A stretch of 64,000 bases of DNA from a virus: IMG/VR virus record IMGVR_UViG_3300011116_000834, positions 1 through 64,000 of that record; one strand, given 5' to 3'. Under the pieces are notes generated by a model, which worked only from the letters and a program-made list of their open reading frames with translations, had not been told where the DNA came from and did not search any database. Below, piece after piece: positions 1-25,245 of the stretch. Position numbers and translations under genes: made by a program. Numbering within the stretch: position 1 is the first letter of the stretch; each line of letters starts with the position of its first letter.

Positions 1-6
1 GCCCCT

Positions 7-73
7 GTTGATAGTATCTGGTTATCGGACGGTCCGATAAAATACTATCAACTTTTATCGGACTTTATATTAT
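7..73. repeat. Palindromic intergenic element (GTTGATAGTA / TTATCGGAC-G-GTCCGATAA / TACTATCAAC), copy 1
   Basis: Nested inverted repeat at 7-52; the sub-motifs recur in nearly every intergenic gap up to 5250. Confidence 0.85.
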
Positions 74-119
74 CAGAAGCTAAATCGACAATGAAATGCA
101 GAAATATCGTCTGAGGGAT

Positions 120-153
120 TTGCATCGAGCCGATTCGATGGCATACTTGTGGC
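120..153 (+). promoter_or_regulatory. Early sigma70-type promoter, leaderless (TTGCAT-16-CATACT-6-ATG)
   Basis: The same geometry occurs in front of 11 cassette ATGs in 1-5510. Confidence 0.8.
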
Positions 154-420
154 ATGAGCAACGACTCCAACAACATCGGAACTAACCCTCTCGCAACTCC
201 CGCCAAGCGCGGACCCAAGCCGATCAAGACGCTTGATCAGCTGCAGGCAGCACTTCAGCAGGAAATCCTGATGACTGAGGTGCGCAAGATCGACAAGAAG
301 ATCGCGACCCATACGCGCGCACGCAAGCGCGCTCAGGCGCAGATCAGCGACTGCGACCGTGCAGTCGCGGAACTTACCGCGCTCCGCGCTGAGTTCCTCA
401 AGACCTACGGTCTTGCCTGA
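154..420 (+). CDS. Early hypothetical protein, KRGPKP basic motif plus coiled coil
   Basis: ATG 6 nt after the -10 box; GC-rich codon usage; hairpin at 441-465. Confidence 0.8.
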   Translation: MSNDSNNIGTNPLATPAKRGPKPIKTLDQLQAALQQEILMTEVRKIDKKIATHTRARKRAQAQISDCDRAVAELTALRAEFLKTYGLA

Positions 421-493
421 CCCGACATTGGCAAGGTGACGGGGGAGGGGAGAACCCCCTCCCCCACTCTACACTTTCAACAGAAACGAGAAA

Positions 494-865
494 ATGGAAA
501 TGTTTGACCCAAAGAGCATGATTCAGGGGAAAAACCCCAACCTCGACAACGCGCAAGTTCTCGCTGCCTTCATGGATCTCGTACGGCTGAACCTTGGTGA
601 TGTTCTTCGGAACAATCGTCACAATATGCGCATGAGTTCGACCGATCTGATCGTTCTGTCGGCTGCGTGCCGAGTTCTGGCCAATATCAGGATTCAGATC
701 GGCGAGGGAAGCGAGTGGACTAGTTACGACCAGTCCAACCTTGGCATGGACATTCTCAGGTACTGCGAAGAGCAGGCTCTCAATGCAAAATCGGAAAATA
801 CTTCAGTTTCCGATGTTGCAGACCGCATCTTCAACGATCTCCGCAATGACGGACTGATCGGATAA
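494..865 (+). CDS. Hypothetical protein (123 aa)
   Basis: ORF track; followed by a GC hairpin and T run (about 887-923). Confidence 0.75.
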   Translation: MEMFDPKSMIQGKNPNLDNAQVLAAFMDLVRLNLGDVLRNNRHNMRMSSTDLIVLSAACRVLANIRIQIGEGSEWTSYDQSNLGMDILRYCEEQALNAKSENTSVSDVADRIFNDLRNDGLIG

Positions 866-924
866 CAAATCGTTGTGGTTCATGTGACCCTCGTCCGATA
901 ACACGGACGGGGGTTGCTTTTTTA

Positions 925-1012
925 TTATCGGTCAAGGTCCGATAACGGTTGATAGTATTTTATCGGATCGTCCGATAAGGAACTATCAACTTTTTATCAG
1001 ACCGTCCGATAA
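925..1012. repeat. Palindromic intergenic element, long copy; 937-978 is identical to 3690-3731
   Basis: gtccgataacggttgatagtattttatcggatcgtccgataa (42 bp) occurs twice. Confidence 0.85.
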
Positions 1013-1044
1013 AGCTAAATATCATGGAAATGTTCCTCAATGAT

Positions 1045-1078
1045 TTGCTTCTCACGATTCTGATGGCATATTGTTGGT
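1045..1078 (+). promoter_or_regulatory. Early leaderless promoter TTGCTT-16-CATATT-6-ATG
   Basis: Matches the cassette promoter consensus. Confidence 0.8.
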
Positions 1079-1351
1079 ATGAACAACTCTACCAAGTACC
1101 CCGACATCGTAGTGGATCTCTCCCGCGTCAGCGGGAACTCCTTCAGCATTTTGGGTGCAGTCACCCGTGCCATGAGGGAGGCAGGGATTCCCATCACGGC
1201 AATCGACAAGTTCCGCACCGAAGCCATGAGCGGCACTTACAACCACTTGATCTTCACGGTGACCAAGTGGGTTGCCGTCGAGGGGTTCACCCCCTACGCA
1301 GACGATGATGAGGATGAGGATGAGGATGAAGACGAGGAGGATCTTGACTGA
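1079..1351 (+). CDS. Conserved small phage protein (GNxFxILG...EAMSGxYxHL type) with acidic tail
   Basis: Promoter-defined start; recognisable phage motif; D/E-rich C-terminus. Confidence 0.8.
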   Translation: MNNSTKYPDIVVDLSRVSGNSFSILGAVTRAMREAGIPITAIDKFRTEAMSGTYNHLIFTVTKWVAVEGFTPYADDDEDEDEDEDEEDLD

Positions 1352-1473
1352 TGACGAGATTCAACAAGGGAGATGCATGGTTCTTTCATCGGTTTCACGG
1401 AATGGACGATTCCGATGACCATGATGGGGCAGACGAGAGGGAAGAGGAAGAACCATGCAATGAGGATGAATAA
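1351..1473 (+). CDS. Small acidic protein (40 aa, MTRFNKGDAWFF...), not in ORF track
   Basis: TGATG overlap with the upstream stop; terminator at about 1480-1510. Confidence 0.55.
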   Translation: MTRFNKGDAWFFHRFHGMDDSDDHDGADEREEEEPCNEDE

Positions 1474-1610
1474 TCCTCGACCCCATGCACGGCGCGTGCG
1501 TGGGGTTTTTATTTGCCTATGGGTACTATCAACTGGGAATAATAAAAAACGCCCCCTGCCCGTCGTCAGGGCAGAGGGCGCATGAACCCCATGATTATGA
1601 GACGAAGTTG

Positions 1611-1808
1611 TTATTCGCCTCTCTGCGTTTGGCGAACTTGGTCTAGAAGGATCAGACCGATGCTGCCGATCATCACCCACGCCAAGAACGACCATCCGAT
1701 GTAAAGCAGGAAGGCGAACATGAGAGGAATGGCCGCAACGACGAGGATTCCGACGATCAGGCCGATGGCCACAAGCACGGTTTCGAGGATGTCTTTTGGG
1801 TTGGTCAT
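1611..1808 (-). CDS. Small membrane protein (2 TM, MTNPKDIL...)
   Basis: Hydrophobic; starts just after the 1810 stop; hairpin at about 1550-1581. Confidence 0.7.
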   Translation of the reverse strand: MTNPKDILETVLVAIGLIVGILVVAAIPLMFAFLLYIGWSFLAWVMIGSIGLILLDQVRQTQRGE

Positions 1809-1809
1809 G

Positions 1810-2013
1810 TTAGGCCTTCCCCATTCCGAAGCAATGCCCACGCGAGAGAATGATCTCCGCGACTGGCGTGATCTCACCTGCGTCGATGCGGTCCATGCAG
1901 AGATCCCCGAAAGATTCGTCCGTAATCGTCAGGATACGGCATCCGTCGAGCGTGTTCCAAGTCTCCCCATCGGGGAAGACTACGATTGTGTGGTGCGTGT
2001 TCTTGTTGTCCAT
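1810..2013 (-). CDS. Early hypothetical protein (MDNKNTHH...)
   Basis: Start set by minus-strand promoter TTGCCT(2047-2042)-16-CATACT-6-ATG. Confidence 0.75.
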   Translation of the reverse strand: MDNKNTHHTIVVFPDGETWNTLDGCRILTITDESFGDLCMDRIDAGEITPVAEIILSRGHCFGMGKA

Positions 2014-2173
2014 GCCATGAGTATGCCATGTATTTAGCTCGAGGCAAATCATATCTACGATATTTTTGGCTTTGTTGTTATCGGAGTTGATAGTATCGCG
2101 GTTCATAATAGATATTTTTGGAAATATCATGCGAGTGATTTGCTTTGCCTTGATCTGAACCTATATTTGTCGT

Positions 2174-2362
2174 ATGAACTACCCCTTTGACGACTACTCA
2201 GATTTCGATGGTAGCTACTCAGATTTCGACGGTAGCTACAGCTACGGCCTGACTGAGAAGCAGATTCAGGATCGTATGGACTACGCGATCAACGGCAACG
2301 AGCTCGAGGATGATCTCGACTTCGGTGATCTTTTCGACGACGAAGACCCCGACGACGAGTAG
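2174..2362 (+). CDS. Small highly acidic early protein with YSDFDGS tandem repeat
   Basis: Promoter TTGCTT(2140)-16-TATATT-6-ATG; 21-bp tandem duplication at 2194-2235. Confidence 0.75.
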   Translation: MNYPFDDYSDFDGSYSDFDGSYSYGLTEKQIQDRMDYAINGNELEDDLDFGDLFDDEDPDDE

Positions 2363-2467
2363 ACCTCGTCTGTCGGGATTTTATCATACCCCCTACTATC
2401 AACATGGGAAAATAAAAACAACAACCGCTTTCGCGGTTGTTGTGTGATAATCGGTTTGTATCGTTTA

Positions 2468-2773
2468 TTACATCCGCGCTGCGACCAAATCATCAATGAT
2501 CTGATCAATCTTCTTGACACAGACCTTGCGGATCTCTTGAGGAACATCGTCGCCCTCAAAGAGGAAGTCGCCGTTCTCATCGACAACGACGAGGTGAAGA
2601 TCGAAACACTCGACCTCAGGAACAGTCTGAGTGCGACGACCAGCTGAAGCGAGGGGATAATCCCAAGCATCGGTGCGCTCGGTGTAGCTCACCATGATGT
2701 CTCCATAAACGAAGACCTGCTTGCCGTTGTAGACGATTGGCGCGAACTTGTTGTATTCGATTTCCATTTCCAT
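2468..2773 (-). CDS. Early acidic hypothetical protein (MEMEIEYNK...)
   Basis: Promoter TTGCAT(2807-2802)-16-CATATT-6-ATG. Confidence 0.75.
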   Translation of the reverse strand: MEMEIEYNKFAPIVYNGKQVFVYGDIMVSYTERTDAWDYPLASAGRRTQTVPEVECFDLHLVVVDENGDFLFEGDDVPQEIRKVCVKKIDQIIDDLVAARM

Positions 2774-2910
2774 ACCCACAATATGCCATGTATTTGGCTA
2801 GATGCAAATGCATTTAGCGATATTTCTGCATTTCGTATAAAAGTCCGATAAGGGTACTATCAACCCCGCCCCCCCATTCGGAGGGCGGGGTGGGTGAGGA
2901 AGACTGAGAG

Positions 2911-3219
2911 TTATTCGTGACCCCCCGTCGCGTAGAACTCATTCGACCACTCTTCAAAGAGTGGGTGCGTCGAGGTGAAGTCAACCACATTCTCCATCGG
3001 GGAGCAGGTGTGGTAACCATCCTGCAAGAGTGTGGCGCGTCCGATCTTCTCGCCATCCTTGAAGACGGTGAGGAAGCAGAGGTCATCGACCGCACGCACC
3101 TCCTCATATACGAGATCCGCGTTGTCGGAGCGGGAGAGGAGAAGATATCCCGCTCCGACGAGCGAGAAGGTGCATCCGTGATTGGCAAGGTGACGGGTGA
3201 GTGAGAGGATTGCGTTCAT
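2911..3219 (-). CDS. Early hypothetical protein (MNAILSLTRH...)
   Basis: Promoter TTGCAT(3253-3248)-16-CATACT-6-ATG. Confidence 0.75.
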   Translation of the reverse strand: MNAILSLTRHLANHGCTFSLVGAGYLLLSRSDNADLVYEEVRAVDDLCFLTVFKDGEKIGRATLLQDGYHTCSPMENVVDFTSTHPLFEEWSNEFYATGGHE

Positions 3220-3361
3220 GCCCATAGTATGCATTCAAATTAGCTCAATGCAAATCATCTTGGTGATATTTCTCAATATGATGTTATCTACCAATAAGCT
3301 AAAAGATAGAAATATCACCAAGATGATTTGCATCTTCAGAATTGGAATGCATACTGTTGGT
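3220..3361. promoter_or_regulatory. Back-to-back divergent leaderless promoters containing a perfect 26-bp inverted repeat
   Basis: atgcaaatcatcttggtgatatttct (3248-3273) versus agaaatatcaccaagatgatttgcat (3308-3333). Confidence 0.8.
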
Positions 3362-3616
3362 ATGAACACTCTTGAACGCAACACCGTGATCGCCGCTCTC
3401 CAGAACGGACTCTGCCGAGTCCAGTTTATCAAGGCAGATGGGACCGAGCGCGTGATGATCGCCACGCTCGCCGCATCGTACCTTCCCCAGACTACTGGCG
3501 GTACGCTCACCCGCTCTCCCGATCTCATCGTCTGCTTCGATACGGGAACCAACGCATGGCGTTCCTTTTATCTCCCCCGCGTGATTGAGTTCACGCCACT
3601 CTCAAAAGCGGCATAA
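3362..3616 (+). CDS. WYL_2 / Sm-like SH3 beta-barrel protein (DUF2693-type)
   Basis: VQFIKADGTERVMIATL...CFDTGTNAWRSF motif; promoter-defined start. Confidence 0.8.
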   Translation: MNTLERNTVIAALQNGLCRVQFIKADGTERVMIATLAASYLPQTTGGTLTRSPDLIVCFDTGTNAWRSFYLPRVIEFTPLSKAA

Positions 3617-3795
3617 GCCGCAAAGGACAACTCTCCTTTGGCAAACCCCTGACACGGTGTTGGGGGTTTGTCTGTTCCTATAATATAAAGTCCGATAACG
3701 GTTGATAGTATTTTATCGGATCGTCCGATAACAACAAAGCCAGAAATATCGTGCAAGTGATTTGCATCGAGCCAAATACATGGCATACTGTTGGT

Positions 3796-4113
3796 ATGAA
3801 CACCGCAGCAACCACAATCGCCAACCGCATCATCATGACCATCAAAACCTTCTGGCTCCCGCGCGGGATGCGCGTCGAACGATGCGACGAGCGCATCGAC
3901 GGGTCTTTCGATCTTGAGATCCGCATCGGGCATGGCGAGTCGCTCATCATGGGCATCGACGGCAACTGGGCGAAGGAGCCGGGCGAGAGGAATGTGAGTG
4001 TTAATTTCTCGCTGAAGGTCGACCAGTTTCAGGGGCATGAGCAGATGCGCCAGCTCGCGCAGTTGCTGGGTACGATGGTCCGCATCGGTGATGTTCTTGA
4101 AGAGAACCTCTGA
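3796..4113 (+). CDS. Early hypothetical protein (MNTAATTI...)
   Basis: Promoter TTGCAT(3762)-16-CATACT-6-ATG. Confidence 0.75.
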   Translation: MNTAATTIANRIIMTIKTFWLPRGMRVERCDERIDGSFDLEIRIGHGESLIMGIDGNWAKEPGERNVSVNFSLKVDQFQGHEQMRQLAQLLGTMVRIGDVLEENL

Positions 4114-4278
4114 AAGAGAACCTCTGACCATCTCCTGATTATCATCCTCTCCTCTCCCAAGCAAGGGGGAGGATGATAATCTTTAAACTACTATCAACCG
4201 CCGCGTCCGATAACAAATAAAACACAAAATATCCCTCAAGCGATTTGCATTGAGCTAATCATGTGGCATACTCTTGGC

Positions 4279-4893
4279 ATGAAGATTCTCATCTCACTCA
4301 CCGTTCTTGCGCTTTCACCTTTGGCATCTGCTTCCCTCACCTTTGAGGATCTTCCGATGCCTCCTGACCAGTACGCGACCATCCGCATTGCGGAGATGCC
4401 GCCCGCCTACAGCGGATTCACTTTCAGCAACTGGGGCTATTACACCGTCCCGAACGGCATCGACTTCAATGGTTTCGATGACGGCATCATCGGAACCCGT
4501 GCGCTCTACACTCCCACCAACAACGACAACGATGGGGGCGAGAATCGCTACACGATCTTTCGCTCTGAGCGGTTCACCTTCACTAGCGCAAGCGTGACGC
4601 AGTTGTTCGCTGCCGATAACGGTGGCGACGATTTCGGTGGCGATATCACTCGCCTCACGATCAAGGGATTCGTCGGTGACCATCAGGTCTACAGCGTCAA
4701 CCAGTACCTTGCGTATGCGGTTCGCCTGACTGTTACCGCTCCTGCGGTTGAGGTGGATCGGCTTGAGTTCTCGACGGATACGGGCGAAGGCTTCGCGATC
4801 GATAATCTCTATGCAGACCCGATTGTTCCTGCTCCTGCGTCGATCGCGCTCCTCGGTCTTGCAGGTCTGATCGGAAAGAGGAAGCGCAACTAA
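4279..4893 (+). CDS. Secreted PEP-CTERM-type (PAP variant) surface protein
   Basis: Signal peptide MKILISLTVLALSPLASA; C-terminal VPAPASIALLGLAGLIGKRKRN; promoter TTGCAT(4245)-16-CATACT-6-ATG. Confidence 0.85.
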   Translation: MKILISLTVLALSPLASASLTFEDLPMPPDQYATIRIAEMPPAYSGFTFSNWGYYTVPNGIDFNGFDDGIIGTRALYTPTNNDNDGGENRYTIFRSERFTFTSASVTQLFAADNGGDDFGGDITRLTIKGFVGDHQVYSVNQYLAYAVRLTVTAPAVEVDRLEFSTDTGEGFAIDNLYADPIVPAPASIALLGLAGLIGKRKRN

Positions 4894-4941
4894 ATCGGCA
4901 AAATGATTTGCCTTCGGTCGATTTGAGTGTATACTCTTGGC

Positions 4942-5145
4942 ATGGACACCACTCAAATCGACAACTGCTCGGACAACTACCTCATCGACGCATTCATCGA
5001 CCTCGACGCAGACTTCGATCTCTGCGTCACGGCAGCAGAGCGCGCTCGTCACCAAGAACTCAGAAATGAGCTGAAGGAAGAGATTGAGGCGCGTGGCTAC
5101 ACCGTCCGCGCGATCAACGGCGGATGGGAAATCAAGCAGAAGTGA
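4942..5145 (+). CDS. Early hypothetical protein (MDTTQIDN...)
   Basis: Promoter TTGCCT(4908)-16-TATACT-6-ATG; hairpin at about 5169-5197. Confidence 0.75.
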   Translation: MDTTQIDNCSDNYLIDAFIDLDADFDLCVTAAERARHQELRNELKEEIEARGYTVRAINGGWEIKQK

Positions 5146-5303
5146 CAAAACCGACATAAAAGGGATAGACCCCCCAACCAGTAATGGTGGGGGGTTTATT
5201 AATTTAATAATTTATTATTTTTCACCCACAGTCCGATAATGTTGATAGTATGACAAAGATTATCCCATACATTGGGATAATCGGTGATCGTAACTCCTTT
5301 GGG

Positions 5304-5474
5304 TTAGATGGTGTTGAAAAGGTTACGGGACTCGAGCTCGGCAAGAATGCGAGCTCGCTCATCCTCTTGGGCGGGATCGCGAATGATCCACTCGAGCTGC
5401 TTGAGCACGCGAATCAGCTCAGCTTCGGTGCGCTGCGAGAGGGGGATGTACTTGTGTGCTTCGATGGTGTACAT
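5304..5474 (-). CDS. Early small protein, 56 aa (MYTIEAHKYIPLSQRTEAEL...), not in ORF track
   Basis: Promoter TTGCAT(5508-5503)-16-CATACT-6-ATG; open to TAA at 5304. Confidence 0.75.
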   Translation of the reverse strand: MYTIEAHKYIPLSQRTEAELIRVLKQLEWIIRDPAQEDERARILAELESRNLFNTI

Positions 5475-5716
5475 GCCATGAGTATGCCATATGATTAGCT
5501 AAATGCAAGCGATTGTATTGATATTCTTTGCTGGTGCATCTGGTACAGACCATCCAGGTAAACCAGAGGGGTCATCACACTATGGGAAAGCTAGAAGGGA
5601 CTTATTATGGGACCCAGGGCTAGCAATTTTTCCCGCTACCAAAATCCCCCTTCAAAGTTGATTCCCCGAATTCCAAAATTTTTTCGCTATGAAAATTGAG
5701 TTTCTATAAGTCGCAT

Positions 5717-5749
5717 AAAAAACCCCCCATTGCTGGGGGGTTTTGTTTT
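5717..5749. terminator. Rho-independent terminator (bidirectional type)
   Basis: aaaaacccccc-attgct-gggggtttt. Confidence 0.7.
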
Positions 5750-6248
5750 ATTGATCAACTGCAAATATGGGAATTTCACCCACATCACCCAATCCTCCTA
5801 CTCCGAGGAATGGATATTTCGGTATATTCGGAATTAATCCAAATAGAGAGTTTAAATCGTTTGATGTATCGATCCCTGCATTTACTATGCTTCTACCATT
5901 AATGGATCTTATGAATCTATTTTGTCCAGACAATGTTCTCTTTTGCATTTTTCCAGTGTTTAGATTGAAGAACCATACTGTTGGACGAACAACATAACCA
6001 GATCCAGTGCTATGGGAATAGTTTGGCATGTTAAGAGGTGAATCTGGTGAATTCGCTGGTATTGCTGGACCAATGTTCAAGTTTCCGTTTTCATTTACAA
6101 CCCAATAGAAGTCGTTGCCATCCAGAAACCATTTACCTCCACCATTGGGTGGATATTCCGATGGTGGGATATTATCCATATTAAGGTCTTCATTCAATAA
6201 GGATTCGATTAATCTTTCTCTGATTCTATTTTTCATTTGATCGTGCAT
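5748..6248 (-). CDS. Putative head-internal protein, leader ...RLIESLLNE, Pro/Trp/Asn-rich
   Basis: Leader motif shared across the cluster. Confidence 0.7.
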   Translation of the reverse strand: MHDQMKNRIRERLIESLLNEDLNMDNIPPSEYPPNGGGKWFLDGNDFYWVVNENGNLNIGPAIPANSPDSPLNMPNYSHSTGSGYVVRPTVWFFNLNTGKMQKRTLSGQNRFIRSINGRSIVNAGIDTSNDLNSLFGLIPNIPKYPFLGVGGLGDVGEIPIFAVDQ

Positions 6249-18848: not shown

Positions 18849-19283
18849 ATGATAATCAAGAAGCAAAACCTAACACGCGAAATATTGGTAAAGTTTTTAA
18901 TGCAGGGAATATGTCAAGTTTCCTTCGAAAAACTTAAGGATGGAACCAATCGTATTCTTCTTTGCACCCTAGAACCATCGCTGATTCCTAGCAATTATCT
19001 CAGTAGTGTTAGGAAAGTGCTGGCACCATCGGGAAACACGGATATACTGCCTGTATGGGAAGTCAGTGAGGGTAAATGGAAAAGTTTCAAGATATCAAAC
19101 TTGAACGATTTCAGAACTCCCGATGAATTGCTAACTGCTGATAAACCAGGTCAGGATCTTGATTCAAATCAAAAGCAGATTATTGAAAAACTCAAGAAAG
19201 ATGCAGAGAAGAAGTTTCAAAAACTTGTGGCAGAACTAAAGCAAGAAGCCTTAGACGCAAAGAAAAAATTAAATGGAGAATAA
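18849..19283 (+). CDS. Second WYL_2 / Sm-like SH3 barrel protein
   Basis: ICQVSFEKLKDGTNRILLCTL...VWEVSEGKWKSF. Confidence 0.75.
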   Translation: MIIKKQNLTREILVKFLMQGICQVSFEKLKDGTNRILLCTLEPSLIPSNYLSSVRKVLAPSGNTDILPVWEVSEGKWKSFKISNLNDFRTPDELLTADKPGQDLDSNQKQIIEKLKKDAEKKFQKLVAELKQEALDAKKKLNGE

Positions 19284-19965: not shown

Positions 19966-20039
19966 GCCTCCTTAGCTCAGTTTGGTAGAGCTGCAGACTT
20001 TTAATCTGTAGGTCGTAGGTTCAAATCCTACAGGGGGTA
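19966..20039 (+). tRNA. tRNA-Lys(TTT)
   Basis: Full cloverleaf; promoter TTGACA(19927)-16-TATAGT; no encoded CCA. Confidence 0.92.
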
Positions 20040-20042
20040 TTT

Positions 20043-20114
20043 GCGAGCGTAACTCAGCGGTAGAGTCTCGGTTTTCCAAACCGATGGTCGAGGGTTCGAA
20101 TCCCTTCGTTCGCT
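20043..20114 (+). tRNA. tRNA-Gly(TCC)
   Basis: Cloverleaf GCGAGCG...CGTTCGC, anticodon loop TT-TCC-AA. Confidence 0.92.
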
Positions 20115-21039: not shown

Positions 21040-21120
21040 TAGCACAGTCAATCGAACAAAGACTGACCCCCAATGTTCGGTTTGGTTTCAATTGGGTCAT
21101 CAAAGGAATTGGTAATCTAT

Positions 21121-21396
21121 ATGCCAACGACAACTCTCTCAAAGAAGCGTAAGGTCCTCAACTATCTCGCAAGCGGCAAGTCACTTACCGCTGCTCAGGC
21201 AATGAGCCGTTTTGGAGTGCGTAATCTCCGTGCCACCATGAGCGACATTCGCGATCAGGTGGAACGCTATGGCAATTGGCAGGTCATGACCGAGATGACC
21301 AGCAATGGTCATGTTCGCTACATGATGGTCGATACTCATCCTGGTTGCCGTTCCTATGCATACAAGCCTGACGGTACTCGTTACCTCATTGGTTAA
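21121..21396 (+). CDS. Winged helix-turn-helix DNA-binding protein
   Basis: VLNYLASGKSLTAAQAMSRFGVRNLRATMSDIR; own promoter; terminator at about 21409-21441. Confidence 0.75.
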   Translation: MPTTTLSKKRKVLNYLASGKSLTAAQAMSRFGVRNLRATMSDIRDQVERYGNWQVMTEMTSNGHVRYMMVDTHPGCRSYAYKPDGTRYLIG

Positions 21397-22303: not shown

Positions 22304-22378
22304 GCGCTGTGGGAGGTCTTGGTTATCTCAGACCGACTTATAATCGGTTAAGACTTGGTTCGAATCCAAGACAGCGTA
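22304..22378 (+). tRNA. tRNA-Ile(TAT), atypical D arm
   Basis: Acceptor GCGCTGT/ACAGCGT; anticodon arm ACCGA-CT-TAT-AA-TCGGT; T arm CTTGG-TTCGAAT-CCAAG; promoter TTGACA(22268)-16-TATAGT. Confidence 0.8.
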
Positions 22379-22382
22379 TTAT

Positions 22383-22456
22383 GCCCTAATAGATTAACTG
22401 GCCAAATCCCTGCCCTTTCAAGGCAGTGAGTCGGGGTTCGAGTCCCCGTTAGGGTA
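22383..22456 (+). tRNA. tRNA-Glu(TTC)
   Basis: Cloverleaf; CTGCC-CT-TTC-AA-GGCAG. Confidence 0.9.
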
Positions 22457-22458
22457 TT

Positions 22459-24988: not shown

Positions 24989-25025
24989 CTTGACTTTGAG
25001 TTGCGGTATGCTATGATTACGGCAT

Positions 25026-25099
25026 ATTCCCGTAGCTCAGTTGGATAGAGCATCGGTTTTCTAAACCGATGGTCGCTGGTTCGAGTCCAGCCGGGAATG
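25026..25099 (+). tRNA. tRNA-Arg(TCT)
   Basis: Cloverleaf ATTCCCG/CGGGAAT; promoter TTGACT(24990)-16-TATGAT. Confidence 0.92.
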
Positions 25100-25245
25100 T
25101 TATTATGAATAGACACAACACATCAATTCGTAGAGTTTCAAATAAATTATTGTGGCAACTCAAAATCAGGGGTAATAAGTGGGAATGGCATCCCTATTAT
25201 TACAAGGTTATTTCTAAGTACAATTATTTTAAAGGAATTTCATTT

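Follow-up and report, generated by a model that had tools for sequence, protein, structure and literature searches.

Two conserved words upstream of early promoters as putative regulatory elements of a PeSL-like module in uncultured T4-like phages

Promoter-early stem-loop (PeSL) elements are composite motifs found in the hyperplastic regions of T4-type phage genomes (Arbiol 2010, PMC2839356; Comeau 2014, PMC4122927), and consist of a stem-loop, an AT-rich stretch, a sigma-70-like promoter, a Shine-Dalgarno sequence and a start codon (Comeau 2014, PMC4122927). Here we describe two short words, called A and B, that recur between the genes of a viral sequence, IMG/VR record IMGVR_UViG_3300011116_000834 (also G000). 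The window, meaning the whole stretch of DNA that was analysed, is the first 64 kb of this linear record, which is 108,402 bp long and ~60% complete. Copies of A, and most copies of B, are confined to an early-gene island of high guanine-plus-cytosine (GC) content at the left end of the record. The boxes are real, non-random and strongly selected in a sizeable phage clade. We propose, with a probability of roughly 0.55, that A and B are putative protein-binding upstream elements of immediate-early promoters, and that they form part of a PeSL-like composite module in a clade of T4-like myoviruses.

The island has much in common with the regions that carry PeSLs. It lies in a T4-like phage, it is a variable region of small ORFans whose content is replaced between relatives, a stem-loop and a sigma-70-like early promoter are repeated before each ORFan with the stem-loop just upstream of the promoter, and modules have been duplicated within the region. 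Its place in a hyperplastic region of a T4-type genome is indicated by baseplate wedge proteins encoded in the same record, and by the corresponding island of a related record (G001), which is syntenic but does not align. However, where PeSLs have only a generally AT-rich stretch, the present locus has two invariant words between stem-loop and promoter, and the island is GC-rich with host-like codon usage. The 3' end also differs, in that a start codon preceded by a Shine-Dalgarno sequence is replaced by a leaderless ATG 6 nucleotides past the -10 element.

Large open reading frames of the record match the T4-type wedge proteins of phrog_219 and phrog_438, and gp6 is matched as well. Since gp6 of the nearest cultured phages (T4-like cyanophages and Methylophilales phage Melnitz) shows only 26-30% identity, the source is an uncultured T4-like myovirus. 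A blastn search of positions 1-6000 against 50,697 phage records gave zero matches to cultured relatives, protein-based searches of IMG/VR with two island proteins as queries found nothing, and no close relative of this particular island emerged from the DNA and protein searches.

Within the window, the A word GTTGATAGT has 11 exact matches (at 7, 44, 948, 982, 1525, 2086, 2395, 2856, 3701, 4190 and 5241, just as in a preliminary description of this DNA) against 0.72 expected, a number reached in none of 100 shuffles. That description had also proposed a genome-wide count, and this count places the word nowhere in the other 103 kb of the record. The B word TCCGATAA occurs 19 times in the window against 2.2 expected, with 15 of the 19 copies between 22 and 5239, and 12 of the 13 genome copies of its 9-mer form GTCCGATAA fall in the same interval. 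All 11 A boxes lie between gene calls, as had been claimed, and the reported pairing of A with B is borne out for nine of them, which have a B within 10 nucleotides (the exceptions are 1525 and 2395). The boxes of the window and the island that holds them are as follows.

1-5540, both strands: early-gene island, ~50% GC, with 14 small genes in ~11 promoter-gene-terminator cassettes; holds every A box
7-63, no strand assigned: cluster A-B-B'-A'-B, a nested palindrome plus an extra B, ~57 nucleotides upstream of the -35 element of the promoter at 120
893-901, plus strand: B box within the terminator hairpin 884-917, with a B variant, TTATCGGTC, next at 925-933
937-1012, no strand assigned: cluster B'-A-B-B'-A'-B-B', between the terminator 884-917 and the promoter at 1045
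1525-1533, minus strand: lone A between convergent terminators, directly downstream of the minus-strand terminator 1581-1549
2078-2094, no strand assigned: abutting B and A between the divergent promoters 2047 (minus) and 2140 (plus)
2395-2403, minus strand: lone A between convergent terminators, directly downstream of the minus-strand terminator 2443-2418
2843-2864, minus strand: canonical unit of hairpin, A, 4 nucleotides and B, then the promoter at 2807 (minus)
3690-3731, no strand assigned: cluster B'-A-B-B', the last B ending 30 nucleotides before the -35 element of the promoter at 3762
4190-4213, no strand assigned: A' then B' with a 6-nucleotide gap, B ending 31 nucleotides before the -35 element of the promoter at 4245
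5231-5249, plus strand: B' then A with a 1-nucleotide gap, between the convergent terminators 5161-5200 (plus) and 5282-5258 (minus)

Direct reading of positions 7-52 gives A, 6 nucleotides, B, 1 nucleotide, B', 3 nucleotides and A', which is the nested palindrome noted earlier. The 42-bp identity between 937-978 and 3690-3731 is likewise real (repeat families D6 and D8), and an inverted copy with 91% identity relates 21-78 to 3675-3732 (repeat I3), so that the three clusters are copies of one ~58-nucleotide module. The statement that the boxes lie outside the promoter and terminator elements holds in general, but it fails for the B at 893-901, which sits in a terminator hairpin, and for B inside a duplicated promoter module. 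Because the B near several promoters belongs to this duplicated 79-nucleotide module (I1), the boxes are not fully apart from promoters.

The island is distinct from the remaining genome in several ways. Its GC content is ~50% from position 1 to ~5540, compared with ~37% in the remainder of the record, and the record's left end falls inside it. GC content at third codon positions is 0.69 for island genes and 0.23 for genes elsewhere. Each of 11 island promoters, all within 1-5540, combines an upstream word, GAAATATC, with a TTGCAT-type -35 element, a 16-nucleotide spacer and an extended -10 element of the form TGG-CATACT, and complete copies that unite the upstream word, the -35 and the extended -10 number zero elsewhere in the record. 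Because the ATG lies only 6 nucleotides past the -10 element, island transcripts are leaderless, and they are without a Shine-Dalgarno sequence. Terminator-like hairpins are in excess (18 compared with 5.3 expected). We infer from these sequence properties that the island is an immediate-early block suited to unmodified host machinery.

Codon usage of the island is also unlike that of the rest of the genome. The A-ending codons AAA, GGA, AUA, GAA and AGA, which are read by phage tRNAs, are shunned by the island and favoured by the remaining genome, such that AGA makes up 4% of arginine codons in the island compared with 60% elsewhere, and ATA 0% of isoleucine codons compared with 35%. Phage tRNAs Lys-UUU, Gly-UCC, Ile-UAU, Glu-UUC and Arg-UCU are encoded at 19966-20114, 22304-22457 and 25025-25100. 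The early block seems adapted to the tRNAs of the host, and the later genes to those of the phage.

A scan of IMG/VR with the pattern of A followed by B returned mostly chance matches, plus six records with many boxes (G001-G006). In these, phage DNA of 33-42% GC contains a block of 45-59% GC, either internally or at one end, and most boxes are in the block or at its edge. A metagenome scan added 100 further loci, most of which have multiple boxes. The preliminary description had made its proposal depend on conservation in relatives, and exact copies are present in more than 100 related phage fragments. Core genes of G001, one of the six records, share ~70% identity with this phage across 16.7-32.9 kb. 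The island of G001 is syntenic, its non-coding junction aligns at 73% and the same boxes are present, yet no island genes align at the DNA level. More generally, the island genes of box-bearing relatives are mostly unrelated to those of the window. When G005 is aligned with G006, A, B, -35 and -10 are invariant and the spacers have changed. These two records and locus L145 form a subgroup with fully syntenic islands whose boxes occupy conserved places.

To measure the properties of the two motifs, 88 related and non-redundant loci with a combined length of 699 kb were used. A consists of exactly ten bases, GTTGATAGTA, with information content near nil on either side, and B of nine, TTATCGGAC. 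The two words differ in the variation that they allow. There are 212 exact copies of A, of which ~85 are guaranteed by the retrieval pattern, and 33 copies with one mismatch compared with 38 for a reversed-motif control, so that conservation of A is all-or-none, a contrast that persists in the copies beyond those ~85. B has 163 exact copies, and its 136 one-mismatch copies (50 in the control) indicate that variants are tolerated. The commonest arrangement is A, 1-6 nucleotides, B, and others have B before A with 0-3 nucleotides between. Tandem copies of A have a period of 16-18 bp and those of B a period of 15 bp. The palindrome in which B and B' are separated by 1 nucleotide is peculiar to this window, and the boxes of relatives are not palindromic. 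A search of IMG/VR with the B palindrome gave two matches, which were without box clusters and were taken as chance.

The literature offered no match for the motif. Compared by eye, none of the DnaA box, the IHF consensus, the H-NS high-affinity site, sigma-54 sites, Ter sites, the MotA box and the extended -10 element fits all copies. A few copies of A could serve as a -35 or extended -10 element (G006 13439, G001 31451), but most could not. Mobile palindromes resembling repetitive extragenic palindromes or miniature inverted-repeat transposable elements were ruled out because the boxes of relatives are not palindromic.

The placement of the boxes relative to promoters supports a regulatory role. 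Both words are preferentially oriented toward the downstream sigma-70-like promoter, A by 83:20 (~4:1) and B by 94:35 (~2.7:1). Of the 15 box-bearing loci upstream of a family of CobT-like genes, 11 place the end of B 22 nucleotides before the -35 element, even though the sequence of this spacer is not conserved. Offsets from the ATG are fixed within orthologous gene families, being about -80 for A and -66 for B in the CobT-like genes, and -95 and -82 in a family of 215-amino-acid proteins. Thus, both the 22-nucleotide gap and the ATG offsets give the boxes a position relative to the core promoter that is conserved across orthologous promoters, as is the case for operators. Divergent CobS-like and CobT-like genes have a centred B-A-B arrangement between them, and in the window, B precedes the -35 element by 30-31 nucleotides at three promoters. 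Sequence immediately upstream of A is more strongly folded, with a mean energy of -14.0 compared with -8.8, and terminator-like structures are found in 37 of 197 cases upstream and 9 of 197 downstream. The order of hairpin, A, B and promoter is present in relatives, and in G004, one B box lies within a promoter spacer.

The module that we propose would run from the hairpin or terminator of the upstream unit through A, 1-6 nucleotides, B, and ~22 (or ~30-36) nucleotides to sigma-70-type -35 and -10 elements and a leaderless or near-leaderless ATG. This order would place B roughly between -60 and -75, and A roughly between -75 and -90. Upstream activators and operators influence RNA polymerase from this distance, examples being the class I sites of CRP and Fis and the switch region of phi29 p4. 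Like these sites, A and B are short and specific, lie at ~-60 to -90, are common to divergent promoters and keep their spacing to the -35 element within an orthologous group. Unlike them, some boxes have no promoter nearby, and the consensus sequences of DnaA, IHF and H-NS are unmatched by eye. B would behave like a normal operator half-site that tolerates variants and is used singly or in direct repeats, and also in the form of 19-bp palindromes in this window, whereas A would be read without any mismatch across one full helical turn. One or two sequence-specific proteins, more likely encoded by the phage than by the host, would dock on A and B and thereby control how strongly or when the island promoters fire, either boosting them or shutting them off.

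The earlier proposal that two DNA-binding proteins are involved is plausible, given two sharply bounded, asymmetric motifs that differ in mismatch tolerance, are conserved amid varying flanks and are constrained in their placement at promoters; the boxes are candidate binding sites. The more specific functions put forward with it, namely recombination sites, replication iterons and genome-end or injection signals, are not supported, for reasons given below.

Several observations weigh against a role purely at promoters. Three of the 11 A boxes (1525, 2395 and 5241) stand between convergent terminators with no promoter nearby, and four of the 11 island promoters (3253 on the minus strand, 3328 and 4908 on the plus strand, and 5508 on the minus strand) lack boxes; promoters without boxes and boxes without promoters mean that the boxes are neither necessary for promoters nor exclusive to them. 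The distance from box to promoter ranges from 7 to ~43 nucleotides between gene families without clean helical phasing, and the gap of 1-6 nucleotides between A and B is loose for a cooperative pair. Most relatives were recovered with the exact A-B pattern, which biases counts of that arrangement. Also, operators seldom have a 10-mer that is invariant to the letter, a property more to be expected of sites that are recognised by enzymes. Placed directly downstream of terminators at every cassette border, A could be read by a phage protein that has escaped recognition, either an enzyme or a boundary protein, and that defines and mobilises early-gene cassettes, although we consider this improbable. 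In that case, the phage would carry an integron-like cassette system without a known recombinase inside its host-mimicking immediate-early island.

The main rival to regulation is cassette shuffling, in which the boxes would chiefly be substrates for the excision, insertion, inversion or exchange of cassettes, either as short homologies or through an unrecognised site-specific enzyme that reads A. Boxes are present at nearly every cassette border, even where convergent terminators meet and there is no promoter, modules of boxes and promoters have been copied within the island in either orientation (D6, I1, I3 and I9), and island content is wholly different from that of G001 despite the conserved junction. 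The all-or-none conservation of A resembles that of an enzyme site, and an A box is found at the start of this record and at the end of G004. Ends of metagenome contigs lie within 120 nucleotides of the composite 14 times compared with ~8.5 expected, but this excess is weak. We nevertheless think shuffling an unlikely primary function, since the conserved spacing from box to -35 element would make no sense for recombination, words of 9-10 bp offer very little length to homologous exchange, and boxes persist without shuffling in the syntenic islands of G005, G006 and L145. Moreover, tyrosine and serine recombinases were found neither in this record (108 kb) nor in the four relatives G001, G004, G005 and G006, one of which is ~80% complete. 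Integron attC sites offer a comparison, as they are also imperfect palindromes at cassette borders with outer words of the GTT...AAC type. However, the GTTRRRY core is not matched by the box sequence GTTGAT, the order RYYYAAC ... GTTRRRY is reversed here, integron cassettes are promoter-less whereas the present cassettes have their own promoters, and the boxes of relatives are not palindromic. An IntI-type integrase (PF00589) was absent from this record and the same four relatives, all of them incomplete, in searches whose controls matched. Because the module stands at every cassette border, it would still provide portable homology for cassette duplication and reshuffling, as proposed for PeSLs, and such a role is plausible as a by-product of regulation.

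Immediate-early promoters can be helped only by proteins that exist before infection, and the boxes might bind an abundant host factor borrowed to fire them before phage proteins exist. The upstream position of the boxes resembles that of Fis- and CRP-type sites, and in its GC content, its codon usage and its sigma-70-type promoters the island is otherwise host-like. On the other hand, the A-B composite has just seven matches, no two of them on the same contig, in a collection of 185,579 bacterial and archaeal genomes with one genome per species, and the A 10-mer occurs at background frequency in 301 cyanobacterial genomes. Both results speak against a host regulon motif in the searched genomes and lead us to give a host factor little credence, although the true host clade may be absent from the genomes sampled. 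Under an origin hypothesis, initiators would bind tandem A boxes as iterons beside AT-rich DNA. The island edges of relatives do carry two or three tandem copies of A with a period of 16-18 bp, as in plasmid and phage iterons, directly beside AT-rich sequence, but all low-GC DNA is AT-rich, and this adjacency therefore carries little weight. Moreover, such an array is absent from this window, where boxes are dispersed over the whole island; across islands they spread over 5-18 kb in roughly one group per intergenic region and follow promoters, rather than clustering at one locus. No initiator gene was recognised in Pfam and NCBIfam scans of island proteins, and we find this hypothesis very hard to sustain. 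Least probable of all is a function at the first-injected end of the genome, where the boxes would signal the end itself, packaging or a stop to injection. This would fit the island's position at the start of this linear record, a G004 sequence that ends exactly in an A box and a G003 sequence that begins with an A array. However, the box-bearing islands of G001 and G006 are internal to their contigs with low-GC phage DNA on both sides, IMG/VR records no end repeats for this record, and contig ends near repeats are an expected effect of assembly. T4-type phages also package by a headful mechanism and are circularly permuted (Comeau 2014, PMC4122927), which counts against this explanation.

If A and B are regulatory sites, a phage protein may read them, and there are two candidates.

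154-420, plus strand: 88-amino-acid protein, candidate binder, with a disordered basic N-terminus, an R-G-P-K-P-I motif and a long helix at residues 27-84
21073-21396, plus strand: winged-helix protein (Pfam HTH_39), alternative candidate binder, outside the island

Of the small gene families, that of the 88-amino-acid protein, which the preliminary description had also named as a protein to test for binding, is the one most associated with boxes; it occurs in 17 of 88 loci, in most cases next to a box cluster. A basic G-P-R/K-P-I motif is conserved in this family, and the AlphaFold model of the family is one long helix with high confidence for residues 27-84, which is too featureless for a fold search. 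At least 303 metagenome clusters at 90% identity belong to this uncharacterised family, which has no Pfam match. The sole new locus recovered with the protein (L208) shows no box, but its sequence stops 260 bp past the gene. The helix-turn-helix frame that the preliminary description placed at 21121-21396 is a real winged helix that is conserved in the clade, with 54-60% identity in four relatives. Pfam and NCBIfam searches found no DNA-binding domain in the island proteins themselves.

Should regulation by A and B be confirmed, widespread uncultured T4-like phages would run the first minutes of infection from a dedicated island that imitates its host in GC content and codon usage, uses leaderless sigma-70-type promoters and has a private two-word regulatory code. 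This would offer a handle on early-gene timing in T4-like phages that apparently lack MotA and AsiA, neither of which was found in these incomplete records by searches that the control genomes could not validate. A and B would also be a simple signature by which metagenomes could be searched for the gene sets that these phages direct early against their hosts, and the PeSL idea would be extended, in that regulatory cassettes can bear conserved operator words besides a promoter and stem-loop.

Other features of the islands were observed in passing. In relatives, genes for a CobS-like AAA ATPase and a CobT-like protein of ~800 amino acids reside in a GC-rich island, both with A-B promoters (L097 10198-14975 and L092 1590-5370). 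Neither gene is in this 108-kb record, so the present island probably extends past the record's left end. Two A boxes of G004 (L088 8337-8420 and 11104-11190) are directly followed by a different repeat array of GTTAAGATT and GTTAAATTAA units, possibly an additional set of operators. A perfect DnaA-box word, TTATCCACA, occurs near the island junction in two relatives (L091 ~2528-2550 and L208 ~4860-4875), and this window's island has no perfect DnaA box. The junction of the window between island and low-GC DNA (5540-5715) comprises ~170 nucleotides of non-coding sequence conserved with G001 (73%, alignment A4) and L208, in which the blocks common to relatives include GAAAAATTGCTAGCCC and GTGTGATGACC; Rfam gives no match to it at gathering thresholds. 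At 6012-6095, ARAGORN predicts an 84-nucleotide tRNA-Thr(GGU), a doubtful call with which the Rfam tRNA model disagrees.

Two small proteins belong to the WYL_2 family (Sm-like SH3 barrel), one encoded in the island (3365-3616) and the other in the low-GC region (18849-19283). The gene at 2174-2362 encodes a very acidic protein of 62 amino acids, contains an internal 21-bp tandem repeat (2194-2235) and has family members in 10 related loci; the product may be a DNA mimic or an early protein of the anti-restriction type. The product of 4279-4893 is secreted and has a PEP-CTERM-like C-terminal sorting tail, as seen from a weak NCBIfam match and from protein-atlas neighbours that are PEP-CTERM families. 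This tail hints at a Gram-negative host with an exosortase system.

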